A DNA stretch of 64,000 nt, taken from NCBI GenBank assembly GCA_964469295.1, contig CAYXYJ010000001.1:34334-98333 (forward strand), in the 5' to 3' direction. The notes beneath the pieces were generated by a model that made no database searches, was not told the DNA's origin, and worked only from the letters and a program-made list of their open reading frames with translations. The stretch comes from an uncultured Candidatus Saccharibacteria bacterium (GTDB taxonomy: Bacteria; Patescibacteriota; Minisyncoccia; Phycocordibacterales; UBA918). Of the stretch, positions 1,355 through 56,946 are shown one piece after another (the stretch's first letter is position 1; every line of letters begins with the position of its first letter). Both the position numbers and the translations under genes were made by a program.

Positions 1355-1840
1355 CTAGCCTTTTATATACAGCTCAAAGTCATCAGGAGTTTCTCCTGGC
1401 TCAGCCTCTATAAGATTAAGTTCTATTGGTTGTCCGTTAAAGGTAGCTTGTAGCGTGGCTTGATTGCTGGCAGTAGCAGATACCATAAACCGCTGTATGG
1501 TTACGACTTGGGCGCATGTATCGGCGTCATTTTTTACCCCAAAAGCAAACGTAACTTGTTCCGGGTGTGATTCCGCAACGCGAGAATCGTACGTCAACAA
1601 ATCACATGGCGTTGGCATTGGAACTTCACCAACGATGGTATGTACACCATCAATATAAAAGTGTTTGGCATCAATACGCGTAATACCATACGTATCAACA
1701 TTTTGTGTGTCAGTGTCTGCGGTGTCTTCAGGTGACGGCGCGGTCGCTTCTTTAGCTAAAAATGTATAGGTAAACATTCCAGCAACAATGGCTCCTAATA
1801 GAATAACGACGAGTATAATAGTACGTGATTGCATATACAT
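1355..1840 (-). CDS. small secreted/membrane-anchored hypothetical protein
   Basis: 161 aa with an N-terminal hydrophobic segment IILVVILLGAIVAGMFTYTFL. Its start is 3 nt from the preceding gene's stop. I recognise no motif. Confidence 0.4.
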   Translation of the reverse strand: MYMQSRTIILVVILLGAIVAGMFTYTFLAKEATAPSPEDTADTDTQNVDTYGITRIDAKHFYIDGVHTIVGEVPMPTPCDLLTYDSRVAESHPEQVTFAFGVKNDADTCAQVVTIQRFMVSATASNQATLQATFNGQPIELNLIEAEPGETPDDFELYIKG

Positions 1841-7500: not shown

Positions 7501-10500
7501 GGCAATATTTGTTGTATTGTTACCATTAGTAATATTTATTGAATCATACATATCCCAATCATCTGTAGCACTTCCTACTGGCGTCCATACAGCGACCATA
7601 TCGCACGTTGTTACTTTCGGTCCAAATTCTAATCGGTACGTTCGTGATACTGATGTGGCATAGCCTTCGTTACTAATACCAATACGTAAACGAATTGGAG
7701 TATTGGCAGAATGATTGGTTAGTGGAGTATTTTCCATACCAAGCGTAGCTGACGTCGCTCCAGTTTCATTCCCGTTATCGTTACGCCAGTGATAATTCGT
7801 CTGGGTAATGATTGAACCGGATAAAGTAGTTGTGCCTGTTAAGGTTATCGATTCTGACGGTGACACAGATCCACTTGATACCACCACATCATTGGTTGGT
7901 GACTGTATACCAATATGAATCGTTTCCCCATTGTGAGCACCGGCTTCCACATCAAAAACCGCATAAATACACATGGTGGTAGTGGTACTAATACCCACCG
8001 AACCCGAAAACGTCGACGTTCCATTGGGCCCAGAAAAACCATCAGCGTCGGTAGTGCCAAATTGTGACTCACTGCCACTATATGATTCACTGGTACAGTC
8101 GTATGGTGCAGTAGTGTCGAGGTCGTAGCGGAGTTTTATGTTCTTTAGGTTGGTGTTGGCGTTGATGGTACCATCTTCGGCGATGGTGATATTCGAAACG
8201 GTTCTTGTGCTTACATTTTCTTTTATGACAAATTTTCCACCAACATAGGCATTGGTTGTTGGAACAATGAGTGACGATACTTGTGTACCGGTAGCCGCCA
8301 CCGATACATCAGCCGCAATCGTCGCACTCGGGTACCGGTCATACACAGGCAATGCTTGACCATTGTCAGTCAAGCGAAAACAATATGTCGTTCCTTCGTG
8401 TGCACTCGTCGATGCAACAATAGAAAATTCTAATTCAACAAAATTTGTGCTGGTTAATGTTAATGATCCAGTTTCTGACGATGTGTCACGGATACCATCA
8501 TTTGGTGTTAAAAACGTAGTGTTTTCGTCAGTCACCCCCCCGTTCCCAACCGCAATATTGGTAGTGTTGTTGCCGTTGGTCACAAACGATGAATTATACA
8601 TATTCCATGCGTCATTGGTCGCATTCACATCAATCCAAGACGCCGCGGCTTCACAAGTTGGAGCGGCTGTAGCATATTCCAAACGAAAACGAGTTGTGGT
8701 GGCAGTAATCGAACCTTCATTTGAAACCTGTACACGTAGCCGTCGTGGCGAGTTTGCCAGTAATGTTGATAAATCAGTATCTTGTACCCCACCAGTGACA
8801 GAAGTCGCGCCGGTTTCATTCCCGTCATCATTTCGCCAATGATAATGAGTTTGTGTAAACTTACTGTTTTTAATTACAGTGCTTGAAGCTATTTGAACCG
8901 CCGTAATCGGCATGACGGTTTGTCCACCAGTCACCACTACATCGTTATTTGGTGATTCTATAGTAATAGACAGCGTATCGCCATCAACGGCTGTCTTTGA
9001 TACATCTACAACTGCATAGACACACATGCTTTGGGTTGGAGAAATACTTACTAATCCCGAAAACGTCGACGTTCCATTGGACCCAGAAAAACCATCAGCG
9101 TCGGTAGTGCCAAATTGTGACTCACTGCCACTATATGATTCACTGGTACAGTCGTATGGTGCAGTAGTGTCGAGGTCGTAGCGGAGTTTTATGTTCTTTA
9201 GGTTGGTGTTGGCGTTGACGGTGCCTCGTTCGGTAACGGTAATTGTTGTGACATTGCGACTCGCTTGACTTTCGCGTATCGCATATTGACCACCAACATA
9301 CACATTGGAAGAGCTTGCGATGACCGTGCTGGTGGCGGTGCCGTTAGCGTACACTTTTACGGCCGGAGCAATATCAGCAATCGTATCACCGAACATATCA
9401 TCCGGCGACGGGTCATACCATGAGATAAAAATACGTTCATCGCTCATGGTGTTCATATCTAATCCACGAAAGTCTCCCGCTGTACTATTTACTGGACCTT
9501 GAGCCGTTGACCATGACGACATTGCGGATGTCGATGTCGACCAGTAGACATTACCGGTAGTAGCAGTGGCAGGCGTAGTGCGAAGTACATAACCAACGTA
9601 AATATTGTTGGTATTCGTATCCATTGATACTGCCACCATCGTTAATCCTCTTGAAGCAATATTTGTAAAAACATCAGCAGTATTTGACCACGCGTTTGAA
9701 GAATATTTTGCTGTTCTAATGTCATGATCAAGAGTGGTGAATTGATCATTATCGGCAGCATATACCAAATACACATCACCAGAGACAGGATCAACCGTTG
9801 CCGCCATACCAGTGTCGTATGTCGCATTTTCTATAGCGTTGGCATCAAATGTTGTCCAAAGTCCAGACCAACTTGCACCGTTCCAAACCCGAGATCTCAT
9901 GTCATCAGCAGACGTATCTCGATTGATAATCATCACTTTACCACCAAGCAACGGTACGAGTAAATTCCAATCATTGGTCACATCCAAAAAGGCACTTCCC
10001 GCTTCAGTCCAATTTGCAGTATTGTTACAGGTTGTAGAACAATGAACCACAAACGCGTCAGATGCGTCAGCGGTGGCAATAAGTACATCACCGGTAGTAC
10101 TTTTCGTCATTGTGATGTTATTGGTTCCAACTGCCAACGTGGGCACTTGTCCAGAATTGGTCGTGGCATTTACTGGTGACGACCCCAACCATAAAGTATC
10201 GCTTGTTGTATCCAAACGATTGTAATACAAACTATCAGCTGCAGCTGACGTTTCCATAGTGGCAATATGGATATAGTTTCCGCTATCACCTGGCGTCCAC
10301 TGATCATACCAAACCACCATACTGCCACAGTCCGTACGAGCGTCCACAGTAACAGCGCTATTCCAACTTGTACCTCCGGTAGTAGTTTTACTATAAACAC
10401 ATGACCCGTTACTATCCCGATAGAATTTATACCCCACGGTATCAGAAACAAACACGGTTTGTGAACCACCAAAAAAATAGGAGTTGGCATCGGTGCTTGT

Positions 10501-10644
10501 TGTGGCATCTATGGTAACTTGCGCGGCTTCAACTATGACTGGACTAAATAAATATTGTAAAAAACCCCACTGCGATAAAAAAATTATCACAATCAAAAAG
10601 CCAGTTAATCCTTTACAGGCAAAAAGCGCTGGACACCTCCACAT
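4495..10644 (-). CDS. giant secreted surface protein (2049 aa): N-terminal BNR/Asp-box-like propeller region, two tandem ~351-aa modules, C-terminal A-type anchoring-like domain
   Basis: Signal peptide FLIVIIFLSQWGFLQYLF. The N-terminal region has Asp-box-like motifs (KTTTGGTSWNS, SNAWSNT, STSAMSSWST). A tandem duplicated module is present (NANTNLKNIKLRYDLDTTAPYDCTSESYSGSESQFGTTDADGFSG... then YHWRNDDGNETGATS...LRLRIGISNEG...YRLEFG...YCFRLT). The C-terminus ...SAQPAGDYETEIVYIALPVY matches the A1/A2 C-termini. Confidence 0.75.
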   Translation of the reverse strand: MWRCPALFACKGLTGFLIVIIFLSQWGFLQYLFSPVIVEAAQVTIDATTSTDANSYFFGGSQTVFVSDTVGYKFYRDSNGSCVYSKTTTGGTSWNSAVTVDARTDCGSMVVWYDQWTPGDSGNYIHIATMETSAAADSLYYNRLDTTSDTLWLGSSPVNATTNSGQVPTLAVGTNNITMTKSTTGDVLIATADASDAFVVHCSTTCNNTANWTEAGSAFLDVTNDWNLLVPLLGGKVMIINRDTSADDMRSRVWNGASWSGLWTTFDANAIENATYDTGMAATVDPVSGDVYLVYAADNDQFTTLDHDIRTAKYSSNAWSNTADVFTNIASRGLTMVAVSMDTNTNNIYVGYVLRTTPATATTGNVYWSTSTSAMSSWSTAQGPVNSTAGDFRGLDMNTMSDERIFISWYDPSPDDMFGDTIADIAPAVKVYANGTATSTVIASSSNVYVGGQYAIRESQASRNVTTITVTERGTVNANTNLKNIKLRYDLDTTAPYDCTSESYSGSESQFGTTDADGFSGSNGTSTFSGLVSISPTQSMCVYAVVDVSKTAVDGDTLSITIESPNNDVVVTGGQTVMPITAVQIASSTVIKNSKFTQTHYHWRNDDGNETGATSVTGGVQDTDLSTLLANSPRRLRVQVSNEGSITATTTRFRLEYATAAPTCEAAASWIDVNATNDAWNMYNSSFVTNGNNTTNIAVGNGGVTDENTTFLTPNDGIRDTSSETGSLTLTSTNFVELEFSIVASTSAHEGTTYCFRLTDNGQALPVYDRYPSATIAADVSVAATGTQVSSLIVPTTNAYVGGKFVIKENVSTRTVSNITIAEDGTINANTNLKNIKLRYDLDTTAPYDCTSESYSGSESQFGTTDADGFSGPNGTSTFSGSVGISTTTTMCIYAVFDVEAGAHNGETIHIGIQSPTNDVVVSSGSVSPSESITLTGTTTLSGSIITQTNYHWRNDNGNETGATSATLGMENTPLTNHSANTPIRLRIGISNEGYATSVSRTYRLEFGPKVTTCDMVAVWTPVGSATDDWDMYDSINITNGNNTTNIANGNGGITDENVNFLVSNAGVRDTTSTTTALVLATNEYTEFEFSITSTNITLVDSAYCFRLTGGGEMLPQYTNYAEIRTAPKRDFKVQQGVAVVTGTSTTLVAGVDYVAPSSTSTAFVRITDTHFTGAGKVTAGGGAQNADDTTAYISQSNLLTSFTISRPTTAINNTRVTWEIVEFIADPGTDNEMKVLGTGTMSLASASTSATGTTVSGVTDDADVVVFITGIQNRNTGRNFFYASQVTTNWDANNNLPTFLRGSTGAIVDVSYAVVEYSGINWNVQRIEHTYASSTITETEAMNPVNSLERTFIHAQKRISNLSNVNNFGHEVWLSSIGAVSFQLESAATTPSGHTSVAWVIENMQTSAGAMVTSREKLTIPSSNSEPYVLSQSIIDPVSATDNTSIFATSRVVGANSNFPLVFAGARITSTSTYEVWRSEASADMVFRSEIVEWPTSGLAVRQNYYRLYADNNTVTPTDPWPPGVTDLGENSPITVTDSPLGENEHVRLRMTLRVANATLPSGLYVFRLQYGLRTTSCATVGSWTNLGDAGSGELWRGYAATGTTDGVSIGSNPPNPGELLISVSDRVGSLIEDGTSPSNPYPVDAGEDVEYEWFVEQNGAAEKSVYCFRMVHADGTPLDGYFNYPQIRTAGFTPQTKNWRFYDDAQNETPATAMANEIVAPTEVQNGNVIALRVTVGEQKHVRGIDTKFSLQYDEDPNFTHPTTLVASSSCTATSTWCYADGGGQENATITTKVLSDADTCVSAVGSGCGTHNRSAVYAAGHTHNAGANAEYAFYLKHAAARAGAVYYFRLYDVYENLPVPAASGEVYPSLVAETPKLSFTVSGLPSGTSTAGVTTTVSTTPTAIAFGSIAPNTNVYAAHRIGITTNATDGYRIYTYARQQLINSYGVSIPSVTGSNAIPVGWSTGCTASATGCVGYHSTDATLLNGSTRFSPLDSYAGLHTALAEIMYSPIPGNESHDMLYRVLVRSAQPAGDYETEIVYIALPVY
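8003..8166. repeat. 164-bp near-identical direct repeat, copy 2 (inside the 2049-aa gene)
   Basis: Compared by eye with 9056..9219. It is identical except for one G/A difference (gggccc vs ggaccc, giving FSGPNG vs FSGSNG). The spacing is 1053 nt, equal to 351 codons. Confidence 0.8.
9056..9219. repeat. 164-bp near-identical direct repeat, copy 1 (inside the 2049-aa gene)
   Basis: Partner of 8003..8166. The flanking module homology is only ~60% at the amino-acid level, so this core looks recently homogenised. Confidence 0.8.
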
Positions 10645-10782: not shown

Positions 10783-12411
10783 TTAAAAATCAGCCACATC
10801 AGCATTGATGACAAAATCATCAAAAGCTGGAACAAGGACATCCGGAATCGCCACCGATGTTGTCGCTATGGAAGTAGAGGTCGCTAAATCTCCCACTACT
10901 TCTAATATGGCCGGCGCCTGCATATCAATTGTCATTGTTGTGGTTCCGGTAACAATGGTTGGTGTAGCTCCAGCGTTAATGCCTAAATTATTTGTTGATG
11001 AAGCTACATCATCAAGGTTTTCGGTGGCATCATCACGGTTGGTGGGTTTTGGTTGTATCAAAGCTCTTGTTTCCCCGGTCGTATCTGGTTCTGGGATATC
11101 AGTGGGAAATGGCGCCGGTATTGACGCAAACGAGGTGATTTCACCAGTAATCAAATCGTATCCACGAGTAACCACATCACCATTATCCATGGCGGCATCA
11201 TAGACTAACACCATTCGTGGATTTGAAATTGCGCCACCGTTACTGTCAGATATAGTAGTGTATACGCCGGTCGCAATGTCATACACTTCAATTACCTTTT
11301 CTTCACCATTCATATGGTGCCACATCACGAGACCGTTTCGAATTACCGGTGCCAGATTGTGGGTACTTCCAGAAGTGAGTTCGAGTGTTTTTCCGTTATT
11401 ATATAACATAATTTGCCACGCATTATCTGCCCAATGTTGCCACACAATATCTATGCCAAAACGGTGGGGTTCCATATTGTTAGTAGTAGTATCAGTAATT
11501 TGAGTTTCAGTACGGGTATTTATATCGTACACCACGATTTGATATCTTTCGTCGACTAATCGATGCCACACAATTGAATTAGATATTTGATCGTAATATG
11601 GCGACGCGTCATCAACTGTATTAAAAGTAATTTGTGATAGCTGTCCGTCCTTTTGAATGTAAATTTCCAAATCACCATCAACATCCGGTAATGACAAAAT
11701 CGCATCCTCTTTTACCTGAGTTTTGTCTGATTTTTGACAATAATATGACCCATCTTCAACGGCGACACATTCGTCAGTTAAAAACGTTAATGCCCGATCA
11801 TTTTCTGCGATAACCGTGTTAGAAGACGAGGCAGATAAATCTCCCTCCAGATTTTCTGATGTTGTTGAGGTGCCCGTAGTGTCCACAACATTGTCAGCCA
11901 GTTCTGAGTCAACAGTTTCATCACTATTGGTATCTTGATTTTCCGATAGTGATTCAACATCAAAGACAGCACCACTAGTACCGGTGGCTGACTCGTCAGA
12001 TAGCACCTCTTCGGTTGTTATGGGTTCAGTGTCAGTAACTGGTTGATTCACTTCATCGACGACAATTGGTGAAGTTTCTTGAGCCAACACGTCTGTCGTC
12101 GACGGCGGTGTGTTTGTATCAGTATCTTCACCAGATTCGTTGGTGTTAATGGCTTCACCAGTAGCATTTGTCGATACACCATCATCGGCGCTAGAAACAT
12201 GGTTATGCTCCAGTGTATTATCAGTCACTACCGGTAATACTGGTGCTAAATTTTCAGTATCAACTATTTCATTAGCAAATACACGATCAACTGATTGTAA
12301 TGTAAAAGACACAAAAAGAGCCAGTACGATATACGCACTAAAGCGACTCGCATACACCCACCGATATAATGGTGATCCCCTCTCTGAATATTGCGTGATT
12401 TTCTTTTTCAT
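10783..12411 (-). CDS. membrane-anchored protein with acidic low-complexity region and C-terminal beta-propeller-like repeats
   Basis: 542 aa. N-terminal anchor FSAYIVLALFVSFTLQSV. It has a long D/E/T/S-rich stretch. The C-terminal half carries repeated Y-D-[IL]-x-T-G/IxxYD units (YDINTRTETQITD, YDIATGVYTTISD, GYDLITGEITSF) reminiscent of TolB/PD40-type propeller blades. Confidence 0.45.
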   Translation of the reverse strand: MKKKITQYSERGSPLYRWVYASRFSAYIVLALFVSFTLQSVDRVFANEIVDTENLAPVLPVVTDNTLEHNHVSSADDGVSTNATGEAINTNESGEDTDTNTPPSTTDVLAQETSPIVVDEVNQPVTDTEPITTEEVLSDESATGTSGAVFDVESLSENQDTNSDETVDSELADNVVDTTGTSTTSENLEGDLSASSSNTVIAENDRALTFLTDECVAVEDGSYYCQKSDKTQVKEDAILSLPDVDGDLEIYIQKDGQLSQITFNTVDDASPYYDQISNSIVWHRLVDERYQIVVYDINTRTETQITDTTTNNMEPHRFGIDIVWQHWADNAWQIMLYNNGKTLELTSGSTHNLAPVIRNGLVMWHHMNGEEKVIEVYDIATGVYTTISDSNGGAISNPRMVLVYDAAMDNGDVVTRGYDLITGEITSFASIPAPFPTDIPEPDTTGETRALIQPKPTNRDDATENLDDVASSTNNLGINAGATPTIVTGTTTMTIDMQAPAILEVVGDLATSTSIATTSVAIPDVLVPAFDDFVINADVADF

Positions 12412-12513
12412 ACTGTCAGTTTTTTACATCGCGACTTTAAAAAACCCCGCATTAGAATAATAATAGCAGTGTTCTGTCAATATTTTTTTACTGTTATCAA
12501 CACGTTTTTGCTT

Positions 12514-13251
12514 TTAATACGCTAGTTTTGTTAACAAAATCGAAAAATCTCTGAAATTCATGACTCCGTCATCATTAAAATCGTACACGGTTGAATGTTT
12601 TGTCCAAGCTGCCAAAAAAGCGCTCACATCAGCCAGTGAGACCTTGCCATCAGTAGTAATATCAAATTGGGTATTTACGGCCGTAATAATTGTATCGTTT
12701 TGATCATTGGTGTGTTTTACTTCAGCCGTTAAAAGACCAACATCTTTGTCAGCCAATTCTGTTCCTCGACCATCACCGGCTAATAATGATACCTTTTTAA
12801 TGGTAAAAACAGCTGAATCAAGTGAATCTGATACCACTTTCAGTGAAGCGATTTTATGCTTTCCGACAAATCCTTTACGGTACGTACCTCCTTCAAAATA
12901 AGCAACATGATCAGTCACAACTGGATCTTTTGTCCATAAGGTAATGACTGATTCACCTTTATCGATAGATTGTACGACTACCGAATTGGGGATGTTGATT
13001 TCTAAATTAACAGCATTTACCGGTTCTTTGGCGAATACATAAATATTCACCGTATATGACTGACCAACAAGTTGTTTGGTGCTGGGCACCTCAATAATAA
13101 CTCGAGTTTCAGCGTTACTTTGCAATACAGCTGCCAAACCTGAAGCAGCCAAAATGAAGAGAAGCCAAGAAAAGGTAAACCGTACGGTTGCTGTACGATT
13201 AGGATAAAAATTTTGAAAATACCGCTTTATCCAAGTGACCGCACGGTTCAT
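12514..13251 (-). CDS. cohesin-like domain protein with C-terminal dockerin
   Basis: 245 aa. After an N-terminal TM there is a cohesin-like beta domain (VIIEVPSTKQLVGQSYTVNIYVFAKEPVNAVNLEINIPNSVVVQSIDKGESVITLW...). The C-terminal part is a tandem EF-hand-like dockerin (DITTDGKVSLADVSAFLAAW...DFNDDGVMNFRDFSILLTKL). Confidence 0.6.
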   Translation of the reverse strand: MNRAVTWIKRYFQNFYPNRTATVRFTFSWLLFILAASGLAAVLQSNAETRVIIEVPSTKQLVGQSYTVNIYVFAKEPVNAVNLEINIPNSVVVQSIDKGESVITLWTKDPVVTDHVAYFEGGTYRKGFVGKHKIASLKVVSDSLDSAVFTIKKVSLLAGDGRGTELADKDVGLLTAEVKHTNDQNDTIITAVNTQFDITTDGKVSLADVSAFLAAWTKHSTVYDFNDDGVMNFRDFSILLTKLAY

Positions 13252-13934
13252 ATTGAAGTTAAATCTGCGCGTAAGTTTTCATTTTGCTTTGTCAAAAAGG
13301 TCATTTGATCACGAATATCCTGTACTTCAGTTAATGTAGCCTTGATTTCTGGTGACGTCGCCACTTTCCCTGACAGTAACGCTTCAATAATTCTGCCTTG
13401 ATGCAGAACGAGTGCATTGAAATGTTCTGCCAACAACATTTCATTATCAGCAATTTGCTGCCACTTTGTTACCTGCATTTCATGTTCAGTTTGACGTCCT
13501 GGAACAATACCTTCATAGAGAGCAACGTATTCTTGATACACCGACACTTCGCGCAACAACCGAGCGGCCATGACCGCTTTGCGGTCAGCGAAAAACCGAC
13601 CACATTTATAAAACAATGAATCAACCCGTTCTAAATCAGCTCTTGATAGACCATTAGATAATTGACCCAATAATTCATCGAATTGCTTTCGTTCTTCAAT
13701 AGCGCAATCGACAATGATTTTTTCAGTCACCGTATCAGCACCATTTTGTTTGGTTAAATCGGCCACTGTTGTAACCTCTCGTTCTTGATTAAGCAAGGCT
13801 AACTCTAGGGTGATTTGCGTTCTCTCAAGGGCTTCGGCCACTTCCCTGTCGGCATACCACATCATTAGAGCAAATACCATAATAACGGCTACGGCACCAA
13901 TAACATAATTTTTATGATTTTTGATTGTCTGCAT
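13248..13934 (-). CDS. membrane-anchored coiled-coil protein
   Basis: 228 aa. TM VIGAVAVIMVFALMMWYA is followed by a heptad-rich Q/E/L region. A 4-nt ATGA overlap with the downstream gene suggests translational coupling. Confidence 0.4.
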   Translation of the reverse strand: MQTIKNHKNYVIGAVAVIMVFALMMWYADREVAEALERTQITLELALLNQEREVTTVADLTKQNGADTVTEKIIVDCAIEERKQFDELLGQLSNGLSRADLERVDSLFYKCGRFFADRKAVMAARLLREVSVYQEYVALYEGIVPGRQTEHEMQVTKWQQIADNEMLLAEHFNALVLHQGRIIEALLSGKVATSPEIKATLTEVQDIRDQMTFLTKQNENLRADLTSI

Positions 13935-13935
13935 A

Positions 13936-15669
13936 TTATTCTACAAGATCAGTAACATCTTTCACTTCTTTATTTACACGTTGTTTTAGTGTGTTTAAAC
14001 CATCAGTCACTAATGTGATAATTTTTTCTTCACTGGTAGTTAATTTGTTAGTTTTTCTTGACTCAGATAATTCAACGACATACTCGTGTAAAGTTTTTTG
14101 TAATCTAGTAAATTCCGCACTAAGTACCGAAGACACTTCAACAGCTTCTTTATCAACATACTGACGCAAGCGTCGTACTCGATACCAGGTATACATGGTC
14201 ACGATAACCAACAATGCCAATAAGGCGATGAGTGGGATAAATACCGTTAAGAACGAAATAACATATGAACCAACTCGTAGTATACCACTTTGTTCGACTA
14301 ATAGTTTTACTGGCGCAGATACAACACTTTGTGCCCCATATTGATCTTTGGCTGAAACCGTAAGTGTATACACACCAGTAGCAAAAGCGTTATCAGGAAT
14401 AAATCTAAATTGACCGGATTCATCAGCAGTCACGGTATAGTTTTTTGGTTCAACACCAGTTTCAAAAACAGTAATAGTCACTTCAGCTCCACCGCGAGTT
14501 TTACCGGTTATGGCGGGAATAATACCGGGCGGAATACGGACGGGTACATCCAGTAGCACCGGAGCATCAAATGCCTCAATCGTAATTGACAGGTTGGCAA
14601 AAGCGCTATTGCCAGCTTCGTCAATCGCTTCAATTACAAGGTTATGGGCTCCTGGTGCCAGATCAGTTACCGTTAGAGAATTTTTGTTGTCGGGATTAGT
14701 AAACTCTTTTATTTCTCCACCATCAACTTGCACTTTGAATGTTTTAATTGGCGCACCATTATTGCTCGTCGTGGTTGCAATAATTGTTTGGCTTGGATTG
14801 GCTAAGTTATTGTCAGGAGCAAGACTAACCGAAAAATTTTCCGGCGCACTGCCATCCACGGCCAAACGATAATGCGTCACCTTACCCCAACCGTCAGCAT
14901 TTTTAAATTGAATATGAAGATACGAAATACCCTCATCCAAATCACGAAGTGTCAGTGATGAGATTGGCGTGTCGTATACTTTGGTGGGAATAGCGGTCGG
15001 GTTACTATCTAAACTGGTACGCACCGCCGTCACTCCGGCTGGTACTGTCCACGTTAACTCAGCGGTGGTACTTTTTGACCAACCATCAGCCGGATGAGTG
15101 ACTGAAGTAACTTTGGGAGCGGTCGGTGTATTCGCTGATGGCACAAATTCCACGACAACTTCTGGCGCGGGGGCCGAACTGGCAGCGGTGACGGTGTAGG
15201 TTCCGCTATTCATATTTGTTAGCACATTTGTACCACGACCATCAGCAGCAAGCACTGAACCACCTGACATCGTAATCCGCGCTGTTCCTGCTACTAACGT
15301 ACGGAACGTTACTGTCATAATGGTACCAGCGGCACCAGTATATCCGCTTGGCGAACCACCACTAAAAGTGATAGTGCCAGCACTATTAGAAAACGTGGGT
15401 TCAGTAGTCCATAGTGAAAAAATAGAACTCCCGCGAGAAACTGCTACAACCGATAATTGGGACGGATCAAATGATACGGTGCCGTCAGCAGCGTTAATTG
15501 ATTTTCCACTCGTATTAACTAAGACCGACACGGTAAATGTGTTACCAATCGTATAGACTCCGGTACTAGGTGACACCGACACTGACGCAGCGTTCACTGA
15601 TACACCAACCCCCAAACCAGCAAATATCACCACGAAAAATACTATTGTTTTATACAAAGAACGAATCAT
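13936..15669 (-). CDS. membrane-anchored cohesin-like scaffold protein with Ig/FN3-like domains
   Basis: 577 aa. The N-terminal domain AASVSVSPSTGVYTIGNTFTVSVLVNTSGKSINAADGTVSFDPSQLSVVAVSRGSSIFSLWTTEPTFSNSAGTITFSGGSP... matches the cohesin pattern. The C-terminus has a TM (FLTVFIPLIALLALLVIVTMYTWY) and a coiled-coil tail. It is a paralog of 50054..51616 (shared SLWTTEPTFSNSAGTITF). Confidence 0.6.
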   Translation of the reverse strand: MIRSLYKTIVFFVVIFAGLGVGVSVNAASVSVSPSTGVYTIGNTFTVSVLVNTSGKSINAADGTVSFDPSQLSVVAVSRGSSIFSLWTTEPTFSNSAGTITFSGGSPSGYTGAAGTIMTVTFRTLVAGTARITMSGGSVLAADGRGTNVLTNMNSGTYTVTAASSAPAPEVVVEFVPSANTPTAPKVTSVTHPADGWSKSTTAELTWTVPAGVTAVRTSLDSNPTAIPTKVYDTPISSLTLRDLDEGISYLHIQFKNADGWGKVTHYRLAVDGSAPENFSVSLAPDNNLANPSQTIIATTTSNNGAPIKTFKVQVDGGEIKEFTNPDNKNSLTVTDLAPGAHNLVIEAIDEAGNSAFANLSITIEAFDAPVLLDVPVRIPPGIIPAITGKTRGGAEVTITVFETGVEPKNYTVTADESGQFRFIPDNAFATGVYTLTVSAKDQYGAQSVVSAPVKLLVEQSGILRVGSYVISFLTVFIPLIALLALLVIVTMYTWYRVRRLRQYVDKEAVEVSSVLSAEFTRLQKTLHEYVVELSESRKTNKLTTSEEKIITLVTDGLNTLKQRVNKEVKDVTDLVE

Positions 15670-16694
15670 ATAATTTCATTTATCTCGTCGGTGATAGTTG
15701 TCGTCGCTTGTTTTTTCAATCTTCGACGTCGCCAGAAAATCACACTAATAATAATTAGAATAACAACAAACAAACCACCAGCTCCAATAATCAAAAAGTT
15801 GGTTGCGTTTTTATACCATGGCATAGAAAGGCCTTGTGGGGCTAACGTGGCCACATATTCATTTCCAGCTTTATCAATAGCTCGAACTCGAATGATACTT
15901 CGTAATGTCTGATCTTTAAGCACGTATGGACTACGCACTTCAGCCCATGGAGCAGTCGCCGCTCCAAATGAAAACCAATTAGCTTCTTCAGTGGATTCTT
16001 CTAGCACCTCGTAGTGACTAATGCCAGTTTGTTTGTCGGTAGTGTTAAAAACAATGAAATATTTATTATCAAACGCATAATTGTCTTGCTCAAGTGAAAT
16101 ATCAAATGGTTCTGGAGTGATGGTATCTTCGGCTACAGTATCGCGCCAACCATCAATAATATCCGAGCCAACGAAACTATTAAGTGTTAGCGTGGTGCCA
16201 AGTGTAGTCATAGTTGCCGCTGTACCAAAACCATCGTTTAAATATGCCGTTGTTTCTGGGGCAAAATTAACAGCAGCCATACCAGCCGATTCACCGCCGC
16301 CGATTTGCAATCCGGGTGAGCGAAATACGATTTCAGCCACCACATTAGTCAAACGAGGGTCACCTTCTATTCGTCTGCAATAACCATTGGGAATACCGCC
16401 AGCAAAAGTGATGGTACGATGTTCTTTATCAATCTTTGGATTTTCAACCCACACTGGGAAAATTGACCGACCAATTGACACATCAACGGGAACGATACTT
16501 GCATCATAGGTTACCACACCGTCAATCGCATTAATACATTCACCTTCAGCTTCATTAGTGTCCACTCGTAACGCTATCGTTACCGCATCACCACGATTTA
16601 ATGTGGCGGTTGGCGGATCCATATATAATGTCGCGGCCATTACTGGTGCACAAGACACAGACCAAAGAACTGCTCCAATTAAAAATTTCCACAT
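15666..16694 (-). CDS. cohesin-like domain protein with C-terminal TM anchor
   Basis: 342 aa. Signal peptide WSVSCAPVMAATLY. The domain ...DAVTIALRVDTNEAEGECINAIDGVVTYDASIVPVDVSIGRSIFPVWVENP...ITFAGGIPNGY fits the cohesin pattern. C-terminal TM LIIGAGGLFVVILIIISVIFW is followed by RRRRLKK. A 4-nt overlap with the upstream gene is present. Confidence 0.5.
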   Translation of the reverse strand: MWKFLIGAVLWSVSCAPVMAATLYMDPPTATLNRGDAVTIALRVDTNEAEGECINAIDGVVTYDASIVPVDVSIGRSIFPVWVENPKIDKEHRTITFAGGIPNGYCRRIEGDPRLTNVVAEIVFRSPGLQIGGGESAGMAAVNFAPETTAYLNDGFGTAATMTTLGTTLTLNSFVGSDIIDGWRDTVAEDTITPEPFDISLEQDNYAFDNKYFIVFNTTDKQTGISHYEVLEESTEEANWFSFGAATAPWAEVRSPYVLKDQTLRSIIRVRAIDKAGNEYVATLAPQGLSMPWYKNATNFLIIGAGGLFVVILIIISVIFWRRRRLKKQATTTITDEINEII

Positions 16695-16749
16695 ATCCGT
16701 TAATGTTAGTATACGTCATCATTTACCGCAAAAAGTGAATTTTACACAA

Positions 16750-16784
16750 AGCAAAAACCCTACTCGTGGTGGGAGATAGGGTTA
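16750..16784 (-). terminator. rho-independent terminator downstream of A1
   Basis: The minus-strand transcript reads AACCCTAtCTCccaccacGAGTAGGGTTTTTGCTTTG. That is an ~8-bp stem with one bulge and a 7-nt loop, followed by a U5 tract. Confidence 0.5.
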
Positions 16785-16818
16785 TTTGCATATTACTCCA
16801 AGCTTGGACCAATATTCT

Positions 16819-18024
16819 TTAGAACACTGGTGTTGCTACGTATGTCAGCGTAGCGGTATAGTCGTCTCCGGCTTCTTGTAGATCTGAGATTTCAACTTTG
16901 TATCCAACGCGCGTTCGACCGATATTTGCAGTCGTTCCGTCTGATGGACCATCATGTCTGAATACCTCAACCGGTGTAGTTGAAGCAGAAACAAATAATT
17001 GTCCTGTTCCTCCCACATCAAACGGATCATCAAGATTTTCCGTTAACGTCTCATCTTCAGTTGTCAGACCCCAATGTCCCCAAGTGTCTTCATCACTAAT
17101 AGATTCTGAAGGTTGTACCCACGTCACAGGTGTCGTGGTATATGCTCCATCAATAAATCCATCAATATCAGCACCCGTTGATGACAATAATTGTTGGTCT
17201 ACAGCCACCGTAACAACGAATCCATAGCTGGCGTTAGTTGCTACTGATAGCTGTTGAGCTGCGGTTGAAGCAGTCCCAGCTTCCAAGACTCCAAATGGAA
17301 TCGCCGTAGCGGTGGTATCGCCGGTGATTAATTCGCTATTTACATAGCCACCCGCGTTTACTCCATCAACGGTAAAAGTGAAACTGGTATCAACTGAAGC
17401 GGTGACAACGACTGGTGACACGATCGCGACTCGAGTAGCTCCAGTATCTGTTGCTCCGGCTTCAATGTTAATCTCATATGAACCAACCGTAGGATTAGTA
17501 ATCTGATTTACACCAGAAGCACCAAAAGTGGCATTTGTTCCAATTTCAATGGTTGTTGTCCCATTAACTGGCAGTGAGCCCCCATCACCAGGACAGAAGG
17601 TCAGAATGATTTCATCAGACAAAGCTGAAAAACCAACTTGTTCTGATCCGGTACAGTCAGCAGCCACATCAAGATCGGTAGCGTCATCAGCAATATCAAC
17701 ATCTTCATAGTCCACCGCACCAAGTACGAATGGTCCATCGGAAAAGTCGATAGTGATAGAATCCCCTTCTGCCACTCCTGTTGGAGTAACAAATGTGATC
17801 GTGTGATTGGCACCAACTGATGGTGCTGAATCTGATAATGTATCACTTACTAATTTGACATTTGCGGCTTCCGCAAAGCGAAATGTAGGCACTCCGAGTG
17901 TCCACATAAGGACAGTGAAAGTAACTACAAAAGCCACAGCTTGGAGTAGACCGAACGTGGTTTTCGTTCTACTCATGTAACTACTACGTTGTATTAGCCT
18001 GACACTGCCGTATCTGAAAAACAT
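16819..18024 (-). CDS. A-family secreted surface protein A1 (S-layer-like/WxL-like candidate) with conserved C-terminal motif ...AGDDYTATLTYVATPVF
   Basis: 401 aa with a signal anchor (LLQAVAFVVTFTVLMWTLGVPTF). It is acidic and T/G/A/V/S-rich. It shares long blocks with 56947..58074 (GTNATFG..G.N.ITNPT.GSYE, TSFTFTV, WGHWGLT, C-terminal LQEAGDDY..(L)TY(V/I)ATP.F). It has its own terminator and a 445-nt upstream leader. Confidence 0.7.
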   Translation of the reverse strand: MFFRYGSVRLIQRSSYMSRTKTTFGLLQAVAFVVTFTVLMWTLGVPTFRFAEAANVKLVSDTLSDSAPSVGANHTITFVTPTGVAEGDSITIDFSDGPFVLGAVDYEDVDIADDATDLDVAADCTGSEQVGFSALSDEIILTFCPGDGGSLPVNGTTTIEIGTNATFGASGVNQITNPTVGSYEINIEAGATDTGATRVAIVSPVVVTASVDTSFTFTVDGVNAGGYVNSELITGDTTATAIPFGVLEAGTASTAAQQLSVATNASYGFVVTVAVDQQLLSSTGADIDGFIDGAYTTTPVTWVQPSESISDEDTWGHWGLTTEDETLTENLDDPFDVGGTGQLFVSASTTPVEVFRHDGPSDGTTANIGRTRVGYKVEISDLQEAGDDYTATLTYVATPVF

Positions 18025-18296
18025 TTACAGCAACGCACAGCGCGACCCTGCATCGTTCGTGAGTGTGGTCTCCACCCCACTTCCCAACTATTGAATGAAA
18101 GGCATATCAAGTCTGTAACACCGGCTGAGTGCCCTCTTACGCGACGAGAGCAGCGTCACTAAAATTTGACACCTCCAAACTTGATACAAATTTATTGTAC
18201 ATGGTAATGATTGCTAAGTCTGTCGGTTATACACAAAAGATTGCAGCCATTATCACTCGCTCACAGAAAAATAATATTCTGTTGATATGTTGGCAC

Positions 18297-18364
18297 CTAT
18301 CCCTTCACTACATATTCGTAATGTAGTCGCTTGGCAGGGAATGGAGAATATGTAGTGAAGGGAT
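18297..18364. promoter_or_regulatory. 22-bp perfect inverted repeat (cctatcccttcactacatattc / gaatatgtagtgaagggatagg) with a 24-nt loop in the long A1 upstream region
   Basis: Seen directly in the sequence. No U-tract follows on either strand, so it is unlikely to be a simple intrinsic terminator. It may be a leader-RNA structure or a protein-binding palindrome. Confidence 0.45.
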
Positions 18365-18468
18365 AGGAACCGATATGGTACATCAATCAAAGTGAAAATA
18401 AATATATCCTGCAATGAAGATATTCAACTTAGAATACTGAATCAATCGACGATAAATAATAGTAAAAT

Positions 18469-19593
18469 TTATCCAGTCCAGTTAAAAAGCAAAATTGAAA
18501 AATCTTCCAACCCAACTTTTCCATTACCATTTATATCTGCCGGCGGATTAGAATCCCCACCATTTGTTTGCCACCAAAATATTAAAATTGAAAAGTCGGT
18601 CAGGTTAATTTTTCCGTCACGACTTAAATCGCTTGGAGTAGCCGGCGCTCCATCCACACCGACAAACAGTTGCACAATCGAACTATACCCACTTTGCGTT
18701 AACAACGGCGCCGTTCCGGTCACTGATCGAGCTTTTAACGCATACTGGGCGTTAGCTAATCCTGTTGTATTAAGGGTGTAAGAAAATTTTCCACTCGCGT
18801 CACTGGTTGCTCGTTCTATCCTCGCACTACTACCAATTTGTAATTCAATTTGTGCATTCGGGATACCTTGACCGGCGATAGTCACCGGGCTTCCCGCTGC
18901 AATTTTTGCTGGTGTTACTGCTATCGTCGGCGGCAAAATCAGGCCAGACAAATTTGTGATGGCCCCTTGTGTAACGTCAAACGTATTATTTAAGGTAATT
19001 GATCGACGCCCCGCTGAATCGTTTGCCCACACTCCTAATGTTGCCGTTCCCGGCGAAACTTCCGTGGCAAATTCAAAACGACCGTTACTTCCCGCCCGGA
19101 CAGAGCCGACTGAACGCGAATCGATTAGAAAGTTAATTTGTTGACCAGGGTATCCCAATCCAGTTACACTAACTGATGTATCACCTAAATCTTTAGTGCT
19201 TCCACCGCGCCCACCACTTCCACCGCCACTACTTCCACCACCACCAGAACCAGCTGGTTCGACAGTACAGGTGGCCGAACAAAAGTCACCACTATCATTA
19301 TTAGTATCATCGCACTCTTCTCCATAAAGAGTTTGCAAAATACCATCTCCGCAATAGGGTCCAAAATCGCAGGTAGCTGTACATTGTCGGCCAGCAATGG
19401 TTGTACTGTAGAGACCCGTTTCTCCTAATACATCACATTCTTCGCCAGCATCAACCAATTCATTACCACAAATACTTAAATTAATGACCGTATCAATATT
19501 CTGAGTTGATGTGGCAATCAATTGAGCATTCACGGTTGTAGCTGACAAAGCGAGCGCGAGTAATGCACTTATGGTCAGCAAATACACACGCAT
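18469..19593 (-). CDS. secreted protein with Myxococcus-type cysteine-rich repeats, Gly/Ser linker, Ig-like region and C-terminal dockerin
   Basis: 374 aa with a signal peptide. The Cys-rich repeats are CGNELVDAGEECD... and CGDGILQTLYGEECDDTNNDSGDFCSATC. A linker GSGGGGSSGGGSGGRGGS follows. The C-terminal dockerin is SDLSRDGKINLTDFSILIFWW...DINGNGKVGLEDFSILLFNWTG. Confidence 0.6.
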   Translation of the reverse strand: MRVYLLTISALLALALSATTVNAQLIATSTQNIDTVINLSICGNELVDAGEECDVLGETGLYSTTIAGRQCTATCDFGPYCGDGILQTLYGEECDDTNNDSGDFCSATCTVEPAGSGGGGSSGGGSGGRGGSTKDLGDTSVSVTGLGYPGQQINFLIDSRSVGSVRAGSNGRFEFATEVSPGTATLGVWANDSAGRRSITLNNTFDVTQGAITNLSGLILPPTIAVTPAKIAAGSPVTIAGQGIPNAQIELQIGSSARIERATSDASGKFSYTLNTTGLANAQYALKARSVTGTAPLLTQSGYSSIVQLFVGVDGAPATPSDLSRDGKINLTDFSILIFWWQTNGGDSNPPADINGNGKVGLEDFSILLFNWTG

Positions 19594-19594: not shown

Positions 19595-20551
19595 TTATTT
19601 TTGTCTTGACCGTCGAGAACGACGATTATGAATAATAAAGAGCGTTGTTACGATTAATGCAAACACTGGCAGTGTTACAGAAATTTTATGGGCCAAAGAT
19701 AAACCAATAAACCCAAAACCAGCCGTTTGTAATGTGCCATACGGCAAGATACTAAGATTTAATTCACCTTCTTGTTTTACATCTTCACCATTATAGATTA
19801 CATAGCGAGCAATATAGCTACCGCTAGGTAAATTAGTAGGAATTTCCGCTACCACTTCTTCAGTTGCATATGGAGCAATCTTTTTGATACGGCCGAGGTG
19901 ACTGGTATCTTGTAACAAAACAGCACCAGAACGGTCATAAATTTTAAACTGTACGCGTGAAGGCGCAATATCAACGTTACCAGTATTTTCTAATAACATT
20001 GAGAACTGAATTTTTCCTGGGAAGTATAGCCAACCAAATTTATGCCCTTCATTTAAATCACTTACTGTAATTTTACGAACACGAAAATCCTCAATCACTT
20101 TATCAATAACAGACAAATCAATATCAACTTGTGCTCCTAAAGAAATACTAACCACACCTTCAGACACCTGATCGTTTGCCGGCATAGTTCTGATACGAAT
20201 TTTGCCACTGTAATCACCGAATTCAGCGTCACTCGGCACTTTTACTCGTACCGTCATTGGCACCTTCTGTTCACCACGTGGCATTGGAATAGATGTTCCT
20301 TCCACAATTTCAATCCAATCCAAAATCTCAGGAGCATCAACTACCACTTCAGCAGCCAATGCTTCATTTGGGTCACCACGTACTAAAAGAATTTGCTGTT
20401 CGTAAACACTGTTACGAGTCAAACTCGTATTACGCACATACGGCGGTGTAATACCAAAACTAGCAAATGACGTAGCGGGAAAAAGTATTAGTGTAACAAG
20501 CACCAAAAAAAACAATGAACGTATATAACGGGCTCTAAAACGTATCAACAT
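19595..20551 (-). CDS. B-family paralog B3 (DUF916-like surface protein with C-terminal TM anchor)
   Basis: 318 aa. Signal peptide LFFLVLVTLILFPATSFASFG. Two beta domains are followed by C-terminal TM TLPVFALIVTTLFIIH and tail NRRSRRSRQK. Its stop is 2 nt from the next gene's start. Confidence 0.55.
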   Translation of the reverse strand: MLIRFRARYIRSLFFLVLVTLILFPATSFASFGITPPYVRNTSLTRNSVYEQQILLVRGDPNEALAAEVVVDAPEILDWIEIVEGTSIPMPRGEQKVPMTVRVKVPSDAEFGDYSGKIRIRTMPANDQVSEGVVSISLGAQVDIDLSVIDKVIEDFRVRKITVSDLNEGHKFGWLYFPGKIQFSMLLENTGNVDIAPSRVQFKIYDRSGAVLLQDTSHLGRIKKIAPYATEEVVAEIPTNLPSGSYIARYVIYNGEDVKQEGELNLSILPYGTLQTAGFGFIGLSLAHKISVTLPVFALIVTTLFIIHNRRSRRSRQK

Positions 20552-20690: not shown

Positions 20691-22565
20691 TTACCAGTTG
20701 GCAGGTGCAGAAATCGCTCCCGTGAAGGTGTTGCGTCCAGTATATGAACCAGCAAGGCTAATGGTTCCTGGAACAGCAATACCCCAATATGTTACACCCG
20801 ATGTTGGTGTGGTTGTACTTGTTGGTTTAAGAATGCGAATGTCCAAAGTTGCTGGTGTTGAGGTAGGCTGTAATTGTGTCCCCGAAGCAAAGGCTACTGC
20901 TGATGTAGCATATCGCTGTTGATCTTGTGGAATAGTTGATGAAGCAGAAACTGGACATGGATTAAGTGGCGAGTATGTTGTACACATTGAGTCGCCTCCC
21001 AGTAATTGATTAAGCCCAGTGTTACCAACAGCGCGCATGGTTGTGGTTGCGGTTAGGTTGTTCATTTGGTTACCCGGCTCAAGTTGGTCGTACGCAATTA
21101 ACTGAGTCACTAAATCAATTGCTACTAATGACAATAGTTCGACAGGACTGGTAGAAGTTGACATCGAACCAGTAGCGTTATTATTATCAACTCCAGCAAT
21201 ACCAGCTACCCAATGTTGCGCACTAAACGGTGTACCCGAAACTGTTGGATCAGCGATAAACCATAATGGGAAAGTACAGTTATAAATGATTGTGTCATCA
21301 GTAGCACCAGTACAAGACGTTGTTGACGCCGTACATGAAAGGTTCCAGTTAGAAGCTCCAACACCGCTTGGGTAACAGTTGTTGGCGTTATAACTACCAG
21401 CAGTACCATTACATGTTGAGGTACCAATATTACTTCGAAATACTGAAGCAACGTACCCAGTGATTTCATCAGCCGCTCCTCCACCAACCGCATCACAACT
21501 GTTAGCATCAGCAACAGTAAACTGCAATGAGAAACCGGTTGTTTGTCCGGCAGGGGTAGTTAAAATAATATCATTACCACCGTTAAGACTAATGGTACCT
21601 CCAGCCACTGTTGGCGCTACATTACTAACAGTAAACGTAACATTTCCACCTTGCGCACCACCAGTTGCTTCATGACCATGTTGGTCGTATAAATACGCAT
21701 AGGCATTATAAGTGGTGTCTTGCACAATTGCCGGTAACGTATAGGTAGCCGAAGCATTAGCGAGCACACCAATAGTCGTGGTAGCCAAAACATCAAGTGG
21801 GTTACAAGTATTGGTGGTTGTACTGTATGTAGGGTTACTACAGACGACTAAGAAAATATTGTCTTCAGCATCAACAACGTCAGGGTCAGTAGAGGTTGAT
21901 CCAAAGACCAGGATACCTCCTGGATTTACTGGACCATTGTTGCCAAACGTTGTAAATACTGGTCGACGGTTAACGTTAAATGGTGACGTGTTAGTTGCTG
22001 CTGTTCCTTGTGAATAAGACGTACTGCAGCGTGGGTTTACTGGATCATCGTCACACACCCAAGCATACCAAGCATTTGATTCGGCAAATGGAGCTACTTC
22101 AGTCGTGGTGGTCGCCGCTCTTGCTTGTGTACCACTGATGGTACTGGTTGACACGGCATACCGTGTACCAGCACTACAGATTGGCGCTGCCGTTCCAAGC
22201 GTTGAAGTGGACATTTGCGCCGTTGGTGTCGCTGAAGTGCTGCAGATAATAAGAAAGTAAGGCGCGCCGTTAGCATCAGTGGCGGTTCCTACCCAAGAAA
22301 TCGTATCACCAGAATTTGTCGGTGTGGACGTTGACGATTCATATTGTTCACGCCCCTCTTGACCGACCACCCATACTGGCGGGGTGTTCAATACTGTCAA
22401 TGTGGTGGTAGCAGTACTGGTCGCTTCGGCTTTTTGCAATTCAGTTTTACCGATGTTAAAGATAAAGATAAAGGCAAAAATTAATACCCCTGTTAAAGCT
22501 GTTAATATGGTAATTTTTCCCGCTTGTTTCATGTAGTGCGGGGCTACGTATTTGTTGTACAACAT
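20691..22565 (-). CDS. Thr/Ser/Cys-rich membrane-anchored surface protein
   Basis: 624 aa. N-terminal anchor ITILTALTGVLIFAFIFIF. The rest is very T/S/A/N-rich with many Cys and no recognisable catalytic motif. It is not a type IV pilin (no G-FTLIE). Confidence 0.45.
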   Translation of the reverse strand: MLYNKYVAPHYMKQAGKITILTALTGVLIFAFIFIFNIGKTELQKAEATSTATTTLTVLNTPPVWVVGQEGREQYESSTSTPTNSGDTISWVGTATDANGAPYFLIICSTSATPTAQMSTSTLGTAAPICSAGTRYAVSTSTISGTQARAATTTTEVAPFAESNAWYAWVCDDDPVNPRCSTSYSQGTAATNTSPFNVNRRPVFTTFGNNGPVNPGGILVFGSTSTDPDVVDAEDNIFLVVCSNPTYSTTTNTCNPLDVLATTTIGVLANASATYTLPAIVQDTTYNAYAYLYDQHGHEATGGAQGGNVTFTVSNVAPTVAGGTISLNGGNDIILTTPAGQTTGFSLQFTVADANSCDAVGGGAADEITGYVASVFRSNIGTSTCNGTAGSYNANNCYPSGVGASNWNLSCTASTTSCTGATDDTIIYNCTFPLWFIADPTVSGTPFSAQHWVAGIAGVDNNNATGSMSTSTSPVELLSLVAIDLVTQLIAYDQLEPGNQMNNLTATTTMRAVGNTGLNQLLGGDSMCTTYSPLNPCPVSASSTIPQDQQRYATSAVAFASGTQLQPTSTPATLDIRILKPTSTTTPTSGVTYWGIAVPGTISLAGSYTGRNTFTGAISAPANW

Positions 22566-56916: not shown

Positions 56917-56946
56917 TCTAATATTCAATTTTAGAACAGTGAATCT

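Follow-up and report, generated by a model that had tools for sequence, protein, structure and literature searches.

Cohesin and dockerin genes of the window

The window analysed here is a 64,000-nucleotide (64-kb) stretch of contig CAYXYJ010000001.1, from an uncultured, ultra-small bacterium of the candidate phyla radiation (CPR) that its relatives place in the Paceibacteria, and we describe in it a set of genes encoding cohesin-like domains and dockerins. All genes of the window lie on the minus strand, at a GC content of about 44%. A preliminary description of this stretch had reported a cluster of three cohesin-type genes between 12514 and 16694, a fourth paralogue at 50054..51616, and two further dockerin proteins at 18469..19593 and 52273..54201. 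The list of open reading frames (ORFs) contains all four cohesin-type genes at these coordinates, and the profile searches given below bear out the fourth cohesin and both additional dockerins. The proteins concerned, together with p228, which is encoded among them, are the following.

p342, 15666..16694, minus strand: 342 aa; signal peptide, cohesin-like domain (~18-176), one immunoglobulin-like (Ig-like) domain, transmembrane (TM) segment (~296-320), RRRR tail
p577, 13936..15669, minus strand: 577 aa; signal peptide, cohesin (40-160), Ig-like domains (Big_13, E 3.7e-11), TM segment (~462-490), cytoplasmic coiled-coil tail
p228, 13248..13934, minus strand: 228 aa; N-terminal TM segment and an all-helical or coiled-coil region
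p245, 12514..13251, minus strand: 245 aa; N-terminal cytoplasmic helix, TM segment (~24-43), cohesin-like beta-sandwich (~46-182), dockerin (195-245)
p520, 50054..51616, minus strand: 520 aa; p577 paralogue with signal peptide, cohesin, Ig-like domain, TM segment and cytoplasmic coiled coil, immediately upstream of the gene for a 7749-aa giant protein
p374, 18469..19593, minus strand: signal peptide, Cys-rich repeats (DUF4215 / myxo_disulf_rpt), Gly-rich linker, two Ig-like domains (Big_6), dockerin
p642, 52273..54201, minus strand: N-terminal half resembling the pilin-like protein p401 (see below), Gly/Ser linker, p374-like Ig-like domains, dockerin with two near-identical F-hands

As had been described, p577 and p342 have N-terminal cohesin-like domains and C-terminal TM segments. 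p342 is a short paralogue of p577, with two invariant cysteines (Cys53 and Cys106) in its cohesin-like domain. A conserved coiled-coil tail of about 85 aa is found in p577 and p520 in place of the short basic tail of p342, and K567, E568 and D571 are near-invariant in the tail of p577. p577 and p520 are 37.5% identical over 389 aa, and the stretch SLWTTEPTFSNSAGTITF is common to both, in line with the preliminary description. Similarly, p642 and p374 share a C-terminal module composed of Ig-like domains and the dockerin, with 40% identity over 246 aa. The p342 family comprises 1184 matches at 53-70% identity, has no Pfam domain and is unannotated, and the p245 family comprises 362 matches, all of about 250 aa. 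From their signal peptides or TM anchors, all cohesins and dockerins of the window are predicted to be exposed on the outer side of the membrane. p245, which combines a type-II anchored cohesin with a dockerin, is a candidate membrane-bound adaptor. The tails of p577 (residues 490-577) and p520 (residues 440-520) also show a weak, non-significant similarity to the archaellum scaffold ArlX/FlaX (E 0.003-0.005).

Two 4-nt overlaps, at 13248/13251 and 15666/15669, had been assigned to junctions within the cluster. Both are real and read ATGA on the coding strand, but the first joins p245 to p228, a gene that had gone unmentioned, and not one cohesin gene to another. Since p228, which starts 1 nt past the p577 stop codon, sits between p577 and p245, the tight unit is p342-p577-p228-p245. 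p228 has no match in Pfam, NCBIfam or the PDB, but in the nearer relatives (loci L001-L035) it retains its place, flanked by the orthologues of p577 and p245. The promoter and terminator scan of 12300..18700 gave numbers not above those of shuffled controls (17 vs 15.9; 6 vs 6.2), so that the operon boundaries rest on gene spacing and synteny.

Identity and fold of the cohesin domains

Six-frame scans with family hidden Markov models (HMMs; E<=1) found exactly four cohesin-like domains in the window, one each in p245, p577, p342 and p520, and exactly three dockerins, in p245, p374 and p642. Searches with the Pfam HMMs, the check put forward with the preliminary description, gave a divided result: two cohesins (p577 and p520) and two dockerins (p374 and p642) pass, but the cohesin of p342 and both modules of p245 do not. 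More specifically, the gathering score of Cohesin (PF00963, 24.1 bits) is passed only by p577 (33.0 bits) and p520 (38.2 bits), and the sequences of p245 and p342 themselves have no Pfam Cohesin match. At the level of families, Cohesin is matched by 51 of the 63 p577 orthologues, of which 62 also match Big_13, and by 21 of the 55 members of the p245 family at E<=0.01. Profile-profile alignment with hhalign connects both divergent families to that of p577, with a probability of 99.9% (E 9e-36) for the p342 family, over the cohesin and the next Ig-like domain, and of 99.6% (E 1e-23) for the p245 family.

AlphaFold2 modelling covered p245 and p342 among the cohesin proteins, with predicted local distance difference test (pLDDT) values of 84.6 and 84.5, respectively. 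Both models conform to the nine-stranded beta-sandwich of ~140-150 residues that is typical of cohesins, and superpose on solved ones; in p245 the beta-strands run from residue 49 to 181 and are followed by two helices. The best PDB matches of the two models in Foldseek are nearly all cohesins, with E values down to ~1e-8, a probability of 1.00 and target-normalised TM-scores of 0.67-0.80. The top two for p245 are the non-cellulosomal cohesin 2xdh of A. fulgidus and the C. perfringens cohesin 2vo8 (TM-score 0.75-0.80), and the top matches for p342 are the cohesins 2vn6_A, 4dh2 and 5nrm. Searches of PDB sequences with the p245 and p342 family profiles returned no cohesin, and within the PDB the relationship is visible by fold comparison only. 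The parent protein of 2xdh also carries a dockerin, as p245 does.

Identity and geometry of the dockerin domains

The gathering score of Dockerin_1 (PF00404, 22.9 bits) is passed by p374 (24.1 bits) and p642 (33.1 bits), and the dockerin of p245 falls below it (18.5 bits). Nevertheless, Dockerin_1 is matched at E<=0.01 by 45 of the 55 p245-family members, as it is by 60 of the 63 p374 orthologues, and hhalign aligns the p245 dockerin with that of p374 with a probability of 97.2% (E 4e-11). Together with the hhalign match and modelled fold of its cohesin, this upholds the earlier assignment of a cohesin-like domain plus a C-terminal dockerin to p245, though its Pfam scores are sub-threshold or absent.

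Paired 12-residue calcium loops of the form D-x-[DNST]-x-[DNS]-G...[DE], 27-31 residues apart, occur in the window at the C-termini of p245, p374 and p642 only. The loops are DITTDGKVSLAD and DFNDDGVMNFRD in p245, and DLSRDGKINLTD and DINGNGKVGLED in p374. In the p245 model one helix follows each loop (206-218 and 233-244) and none lies ahead of the first, which indicates F-hand geometry rather than a four-helix EF-hand pair. In the p374 dockerin, residues D322, D333, S335, D364, S366, I367 and W372 are invariant or near-invariant in ~60 orthologues. Family conservation and fold exclude chance motif matches as the source of the cohesin and dockerin assignments. As judged from profiles and models, these modules are genuine but divergent homologues of cohesins and dockerins.

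None of the three dockerin proteins of the window is a glycoside hydrolase (GH), another carbohydrate-active enzyme (CAZyme) or a protein with a carbohydrate-binding module (CBM); what they carry besides the dockerin are Ig-like domains, Cys-rich repeats, a cohesin or a pilin-like domain. The sole GH of the window, a GH18 protein (60443..61654), has neither a dockerin nor an F-hand pair, and F-hand motif and family HMM scans of the giant proteins of the window found no dockerin. The absence of a GH cellulosome context, as first described, is thus correct.

A conserved operon in Paceibacteria

We compared 80 related loci, from metagenome-assembled genomes labelled Parcubacteria, Paceibacteria, Kaiserbacteria, Nomurabacteria, Azambacteria, Falkowbacteria, Nealsonbacteria, Portnoybacteria or Minisyncoccia. 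The counts below refer to the loci with enough flanking sequence. The genes occur in a fixed order: FN3 protein, ATP-binding cassette (ABC) ATPase, MacB/FtsX permease, p624, p318, p374, (p401), p342 and p577, and in closer relatives this order continues with p228, p245, a542 and a2049. The members not yet introduced, apart from a542, are the following.

fn3_493, 25269..26750, minus strand: three FN3 / purple-acid-phosphatase-N-like domains; first gene of the conserved operon
ABC ATPase, 23883..25205, minus strand: Pfam ABC_tran; core operon member
MacB/LolC-type permease, 22642..23856, minus strand: Pfam MacB_PCD and FtsX, NCBIfam lolCE and MacB; core operon member
p624, 20691..22565, minus strand: TM-anchored Thr/Ser/Cys-rich protein; core operon member by synteny
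p318, 19595..20551, minus strand: signal peptide, ~250-aa A6 family-profile region (weak Pfam matches to Ig-like and WxL-interacting-protein (WxLIP) models), C-terminal TM segment, basic tail
p401, 16819..18024, minus strand: secreted beta protein of two domains; candidate subunit of a fibre or pilus, with remote similarity to Pam pilins
a2049, 4495..10644, minus strand: giant secreted 2049-aa protein; C-terminal part homologous to the C-terminal domain of p401

In 52 of 54 loci p342 is preceded by a dockerin gene of the same strand, in 70 of 73 it is directly followed by a p577-like gene, and 47 of 51 have the complete dockerin-cohesin-cohesin triad. The triad arrangement holds from Kaiserbacteria to Falkowbacteria and Minisyncoccia, down to ~30% identity, and in the distant lineages the dockerin gene abuts p342, separated from it by anything between a few bases and some tens of bases, and p342 and p577 often overlap. 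This persistence of a dockerin gene beside two cohesin genes at such low identity is the strongest indirect evidence presented here for a joint function. The ABC and FtsX genes are both present in 34 of the 42 loci that have at least 8.5 kb of upstream sequence, and a p245-like gene is found in 35 of 66. p374 and p342, which are adjacent and the most conserved pair, hint at being binding partners.

The cohesin and dockerin genes thus belong to a dedicated, deeply conserved operon of Paceibacteria. The earlier view of a non-cellulosomal surface assembly agrees with our best reading, but the label "general-purpose" does not, and the genes are more than a loose network. The cluster first outlined was also incomplete: the p374 dockerin gene belongs to the same conserved unit, and the pilin-like and giant-adhesin neighbours had been missed.

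Some loci bear the operon under unexpected titles. L043, L044, L047 and L051 are titled Aminicenantia, Gammaproteobacteria or Humimicrobiaceae, and many others "uncultured Candidatus Saccharibacteria". These titles are probably binning or naming errors, and not a true spread beyond Paceibacteria.

Pilin-like and giant neighbours

Pam pili are specific to the CPR and consist of two-domain beta pilins joined by donor-strand exchange (Troman et al. 2026, bioRxiv 10.64898/2026.03.03.709456). The system includes membrane-anchored PapD-like chaperones and a membrane-anchored terminator, PamR, which tethers the fibre, and a CBS-type Mg2+ transporter, CorB, is conserved beside the pam operon (10.64898/2026.03.03.709456). 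Two neighbours of the cohesin genes, p401 and a2049, show a remote resemblance to the pilins of this system, and a second, partial module at 55745..58074 contains paralogues of p401 and p318.

p375, 56947..58074, minus strand: p401 paralogue, 53% identical
p363, 55745..56836, minus strand: p318 paralogue

The p401 family has >2016 matches at 64-78% identity and a mean column identity of 73%, and both its central strand (TRVAI..PVVVTA.VDT) and its C-terminus (DYTATLTYVATPVF) are invariant. Identity at this level across the group fits the expectation for a polymer subunit. Since homologues begin with MSRT, the true start of p401 is probably Met17, which gives a protein of 385 aa and places the ORF start 16 codons too far upstream. 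Against NF058581 (CPR_Pam_pilin_C, Pam pilus system pilin subunit), the NCBIfam model with a cutoff of 55 bits, p401 scores 26.8 bits (E 4.5e-6, model positions 2-40), and 39 of 42 family members match it, all sub-threshold at ~27 bits. The C-terminal part of a2049 aligns with the C-terminal domain of p401 in hhalign (probability 96.7%, E 3.5e-10), and the final 146 aa of a2049 match NF058581 from end to end (model positions 3-148, E 1.4e-4), also sub-threshold at 22 bits. As all these scores lie under the cutoff, they suggest only remote homology of p401 and of the a2049 C-terminus to Pam pilins. With a huge N-terminal region followed by a pilin-like C-terminus, a2049 has a tip-adhesin-like architecture. 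PDB sequence searches with p401 and p318 gave no match. For a secreted CPR protein, the conservation of p401 is exceptional.

A link between the two sets of genes is found in p642, which resembles p401 in its N-terminal half only (hhalign of the p401 family against p642 residues 5-246, probability 90%, E 1.6e-6), has no counterpart of the C-terminal p401 domain, and carries a dockerin at its own C-terminus. From this arrangement of domains, p642 is a candidate fibre-terminating anchor subunit.

The p318 family has three further members in the window, p363, a358 (3510..4586) and, through its N-terminus, a553 (1874..3535). All four proteins have a signal peptide, the common ~250-aa region and a C-terminal TM segment. 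Matches to the WxLIP model PF06030 (WxLIP_PGBD; gathering score 27.3 bits) are sub-threshold in p363 (24.6 bits) and a553 (23.1 bits), WxLIP_HBD is matched by 2 of 51 family members, and p318 itself matches neither PF06030 nor PF11797. In addition, a553 has a LytR_C domain.

In BLASTP (E 2e-20), p624 aligns through its C-terminal 300 aa with the C-terminus of the 7749-aa giant (26756..50005), at 32% identity. The two proteins share a ...YWGI(A/S)VP... motif, and thus a second type of C-terminal module common to a small operon protein and a giant.

A model for membrane attachment

Taking together the observed domain identities, membrane-topology features, operon conservation and gene adjacency, we lean, with modest confidence, towards a reading in which the cohesins and dockerins are the membrane-attachment part of a conserved envelope operon of Paceibacteria, and tether secreted proteins or a Pam-like fibre. 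We infer that the two module types bind each other, in specific pairings, and that this binding could anchor a fibre. Such binding would depend on Ca2+ and use the 8-3-6-5 sheet face of the cohesins. The single-pass membrane proteins p342, p577 and p520 would act as sockets, each displaying one cohesin outside the cytoplasmic membrane. The plugs would be the secreted Ig-repeat proteins p374 and p642, which would dock their C-terminal calcium-type dockerins into the membrane cohesins, and docking would hold the secreted protein, plus whatever is attached to it, on the cell. p245, which might both bind and be bound, could be a membrane adaptor or a cross-linker added in the Kaiserbacteria/Nomurabacteria-like lineage.

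The cargo in this lineage would most likely be a Pam-like surface fibre, with p401 and p375 as its shaft and a2049 as its tip adhesin. p642 might be the terminator, able to donate a strand but not to accept one, and its dockerin would fix the fibre to a cohesin. More speculatively, the MacB-type transporter and the cytoplasmic coiled-coil tails might couple the machine to the cytoplasm. In its most complete form, the cohesin-dockerin plug-and-socket would anchor or terminate a donor-strand-type (Pam-like) fibre with giant tip adhesins, p642 or p374 would cap its base by docking into p520, p577 or p342, and the tails and the MacB-type ABC transporter would couple assembly or retraction. This full version is tentative, and we hold it to be less probable than membrane attachment as such.

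Several observations weigh against the model, most of them against the fibre. In the distant lineages the triad is present without an adjacent p401-like gene, so that the fibre link may be lineage-specific or wrong. The Pam-pilin matches are far under the cutoff (22-27 vs 55 bits), p375 has no match to NF058581, and no pilin-like domain was found in p374, the universal dockerin protein. Pam pilins occur mainly in Saccharimonadia and Microgenomatia, and the paper describing them mentions neither cohesins, dockerins, ABC transporters nor Paceibacteria (10.64898/2026.03.03.709456). Two more observations concern the modules themselves. In the PDB sequence-profile search with p245, EF-hand proteins (E 2e-5) rank above a dockerin (E 3e-3). 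Pfam Cohesin matches only 4 of 55 p342-family members at E<=0.01, and for this reason the very divergent p342 cohesin could have lost dockerin binding.

It is possible, if on the unlikely side, that the operon serves plain surface display, without a fibre: the membrane cohesins would hold p374 and p642, as Ig-repeat or Cys-rich adhesins, in a layer for host contact, and the pilin-like and giant genes would be mere neighbours. This view comes near to the adhesion network of the preliminary description. It is plausible because the universal core consists of a dockerin protein and two cohesin proteins, with no adjacent p401-like gene in distant lineages, and because nothing pilin-like was found in p374; in addition, most non-cellulosomal proteins with cohesins or dockerins are reported to be non-catalytic (Peer et al. 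2009, to the extent cited in PMC13487519). However, p642 joins a p401-like N-terminal half to the dockerin module, and p374 and p342, at 60-72% identity, are unusually conserved for host-contact adhesins. The operon also includes the MacB-type ABC transporter and p318-like proteins with the signal-peptide/C-terminal-TM layout of Pam chaperones.

We consider it improbable that the folds are shared without any interaction, with the cohesin-like domains serving as stalks or ligand-binding domains, the "dockerins" as Ca2+-stabilised, EF-hand-like caps, and the adjacency reflecting a common envelope machine. The bare Pfam Cohesin signal of p342 would fit this, as would the C-terminus of p245, which scores equally on EF-hand models and on Dockerin_1, and cohesin folds that do not bind dockerins exist: one of them, the CLIPPER domain 9ifr, is among the Foldseek matches of the p245 and p342 models. 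Adjacency of cohesin and dockerin genes in 52 of 54 loci and the triad in 47 of 51 nevertheless argue for interaction, as do the invariant or near-invariant dockerin residues in ~60 p374 orthologues, and the four cohesin-like domains and three dockerins of the window leave neither type an orphan.

A minimal cellulosome-like complex for polysaccharide degradation is hardly credible and was rejected: both module types are present and a GH18 gene lies in the window, 44 kb away, but the domain architectures contradict it, since no dockerin of the window is joined to an enzyme, another catalytic module or a CBM, an F-hand pair is absent from the GH18 protein, and the cohesin proteins each have only one cohesin, together with a TM anchor.

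Comparison with known systems

Non-cellulosomal cohesin and dockerin modules are a known class, whose parent proteins are mostly non-catalytic, as far as Peer et al. (2009) is cited in PMC13487519. Non-cellulosomal cohesins such as those of A. fulgidus (2xdh) and C. perfringens (2vo8, 2jh2, 2w1n) are, like those of the window, single modules on non-catalytic surface or secreted proteins, and the class also offers the combination of both module types that p245 shows within a single small protein. Unlike these, the window cohesins are TM-anchored. They make up three paralogous families of a single operon, which throughout a class of bacteria keeps them together with a constant dockerin partner, pilin-like genes and a MacB-type ABC transporter.

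In the anchoring and adaptor scaffoldins of cellulosomes (C. thermocellum OlpA/OlpC, 3ul4 and 4dh2; R. flavefaciens ScaC, 5lxv), a single cell-bound cohesin captures a dockerin partner, and the window proteins are predicted to resemble them in this respect. Adaptor scaffoldins have the cohesin-plus-dockerin layout of p245, and their structures are among the best fold matches. Nevertheless, anchoring in the window is by a TM helix, and not by S-layer homology (SLH) domains or sortase, and the putative cargo is Ig-repeat, Cys-rich or pilin-like instead of enzymatic, with no CBM and no multi-cohesin scaffoldin.

As in the Pam system, which is likewise confined to the CPR, secreted beta proteins of two domains, here candidate pilins, are encoded next to proteins that combine a signal peptide with a C-terminal TM segment; for one of these, p318, we assume a two-domain beta-sandwich fold. 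Tethering of the fibre by a membrane-anchored terminator, as proposed above, would be a further point in common. A CBS-domain Mg2+ transporter is also nearby, MgtE here and CorB there, and p401 and the a2049 C-terminus match NF058581, albeit sub-threshold. In contrast, the Pam anchor is an FnIII protein, PamR, and not a cohesin-dockerin pair, and the Pam system has no cohesin, dockerin or ABC transporter.

The WxL/Csc clusters of Firmicutes (WxL plus DUF916/DUF3324 proteins) likewise encode membrane-anchored WxLIP-type proteins beside secreted surface proteins. However, the WxLIP matches of the window are all below the gathering score and no WxL domain was detected in it, and the WxL clusters have neither cohesin nor dockerin modules.

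Our literature searches found no paper linking cohesins or dockerins to CPR surface systems. Three points are new here: the cohesins are anchored through TM helices; they fall into three paralogous families that share, in a class-wide operon, a constant dockerin partner; and this operon is associated with giant adhesins and Pam-like pilin modules as well as a MacB-type ABC transporter. CPR bacteria (Patescibacteria) account for much of the diversity of bacteria and spend their lives attached to host cells, and how most of them build and anchor surface structures is obscure. The present data suggest that one whole class (Paceibacteria/Minisyncoccia) shares a single conserved envelope operon that would re-use the plug-and-socket pair of cellulosomes for membrane attachment, with adhesins or Pam-like fibres as the likely cargo. 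The model gives unnamed families a candidate role (that of p342 alone comprises >1,100 protein clusters without annotation), and it yields testable protein pairs, four cohesins by three dockerins. It also extends the Pam pilus idea to a lineage where such pili have not been reported, and might offer naturally orthogonal cohesin-dockerin pairs to protein engineering. If true, this would be the first physiological role assigned to cohesin-dockerin pairs in the CPR, and a cohesin-dockerin fibre anchor would be a pilus-anchoring principle described in no bacterium.

Additional features of the locus

A non-coding gap of ~445 bp (18025..18468) lies upstream of p401, and is ~900 bp long in locus L001. 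Neither a conserved small ORF nor promoter or terminator signals exceeding chance were found in it, and it may represent the leader of a structural gene with high expression. a542 (10783..12411) is TM-anchored and combines a long acidic stretch of low complexity with beta-propeller repeats (weak matches to TolB / beta_prop_Msarc), and is kept between the p245 and a2049 orthologues in close relatives. The ABC ATPase (23883..25205) has an unexplained helical C-terminal extension of ~200 aa, and a p624-like match also precedes the FN3 gene in many of the related loci.

Within the second module, a gene for a CBS-domain MgtE Mg2+ transporter (54276..55268) lies between p642 and p363/p375. An Hsp20 gene (51629..52108) separates p642 from p520. 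The 3' end of the window (60443..63412) encodes the GH18 chitinase-like protein and a CAP/SCP-domain protein, neither with a dockerin. At the other end, a small protein (1355..1840) shows a weak similarity to the isopeptide pilin Spy0128.

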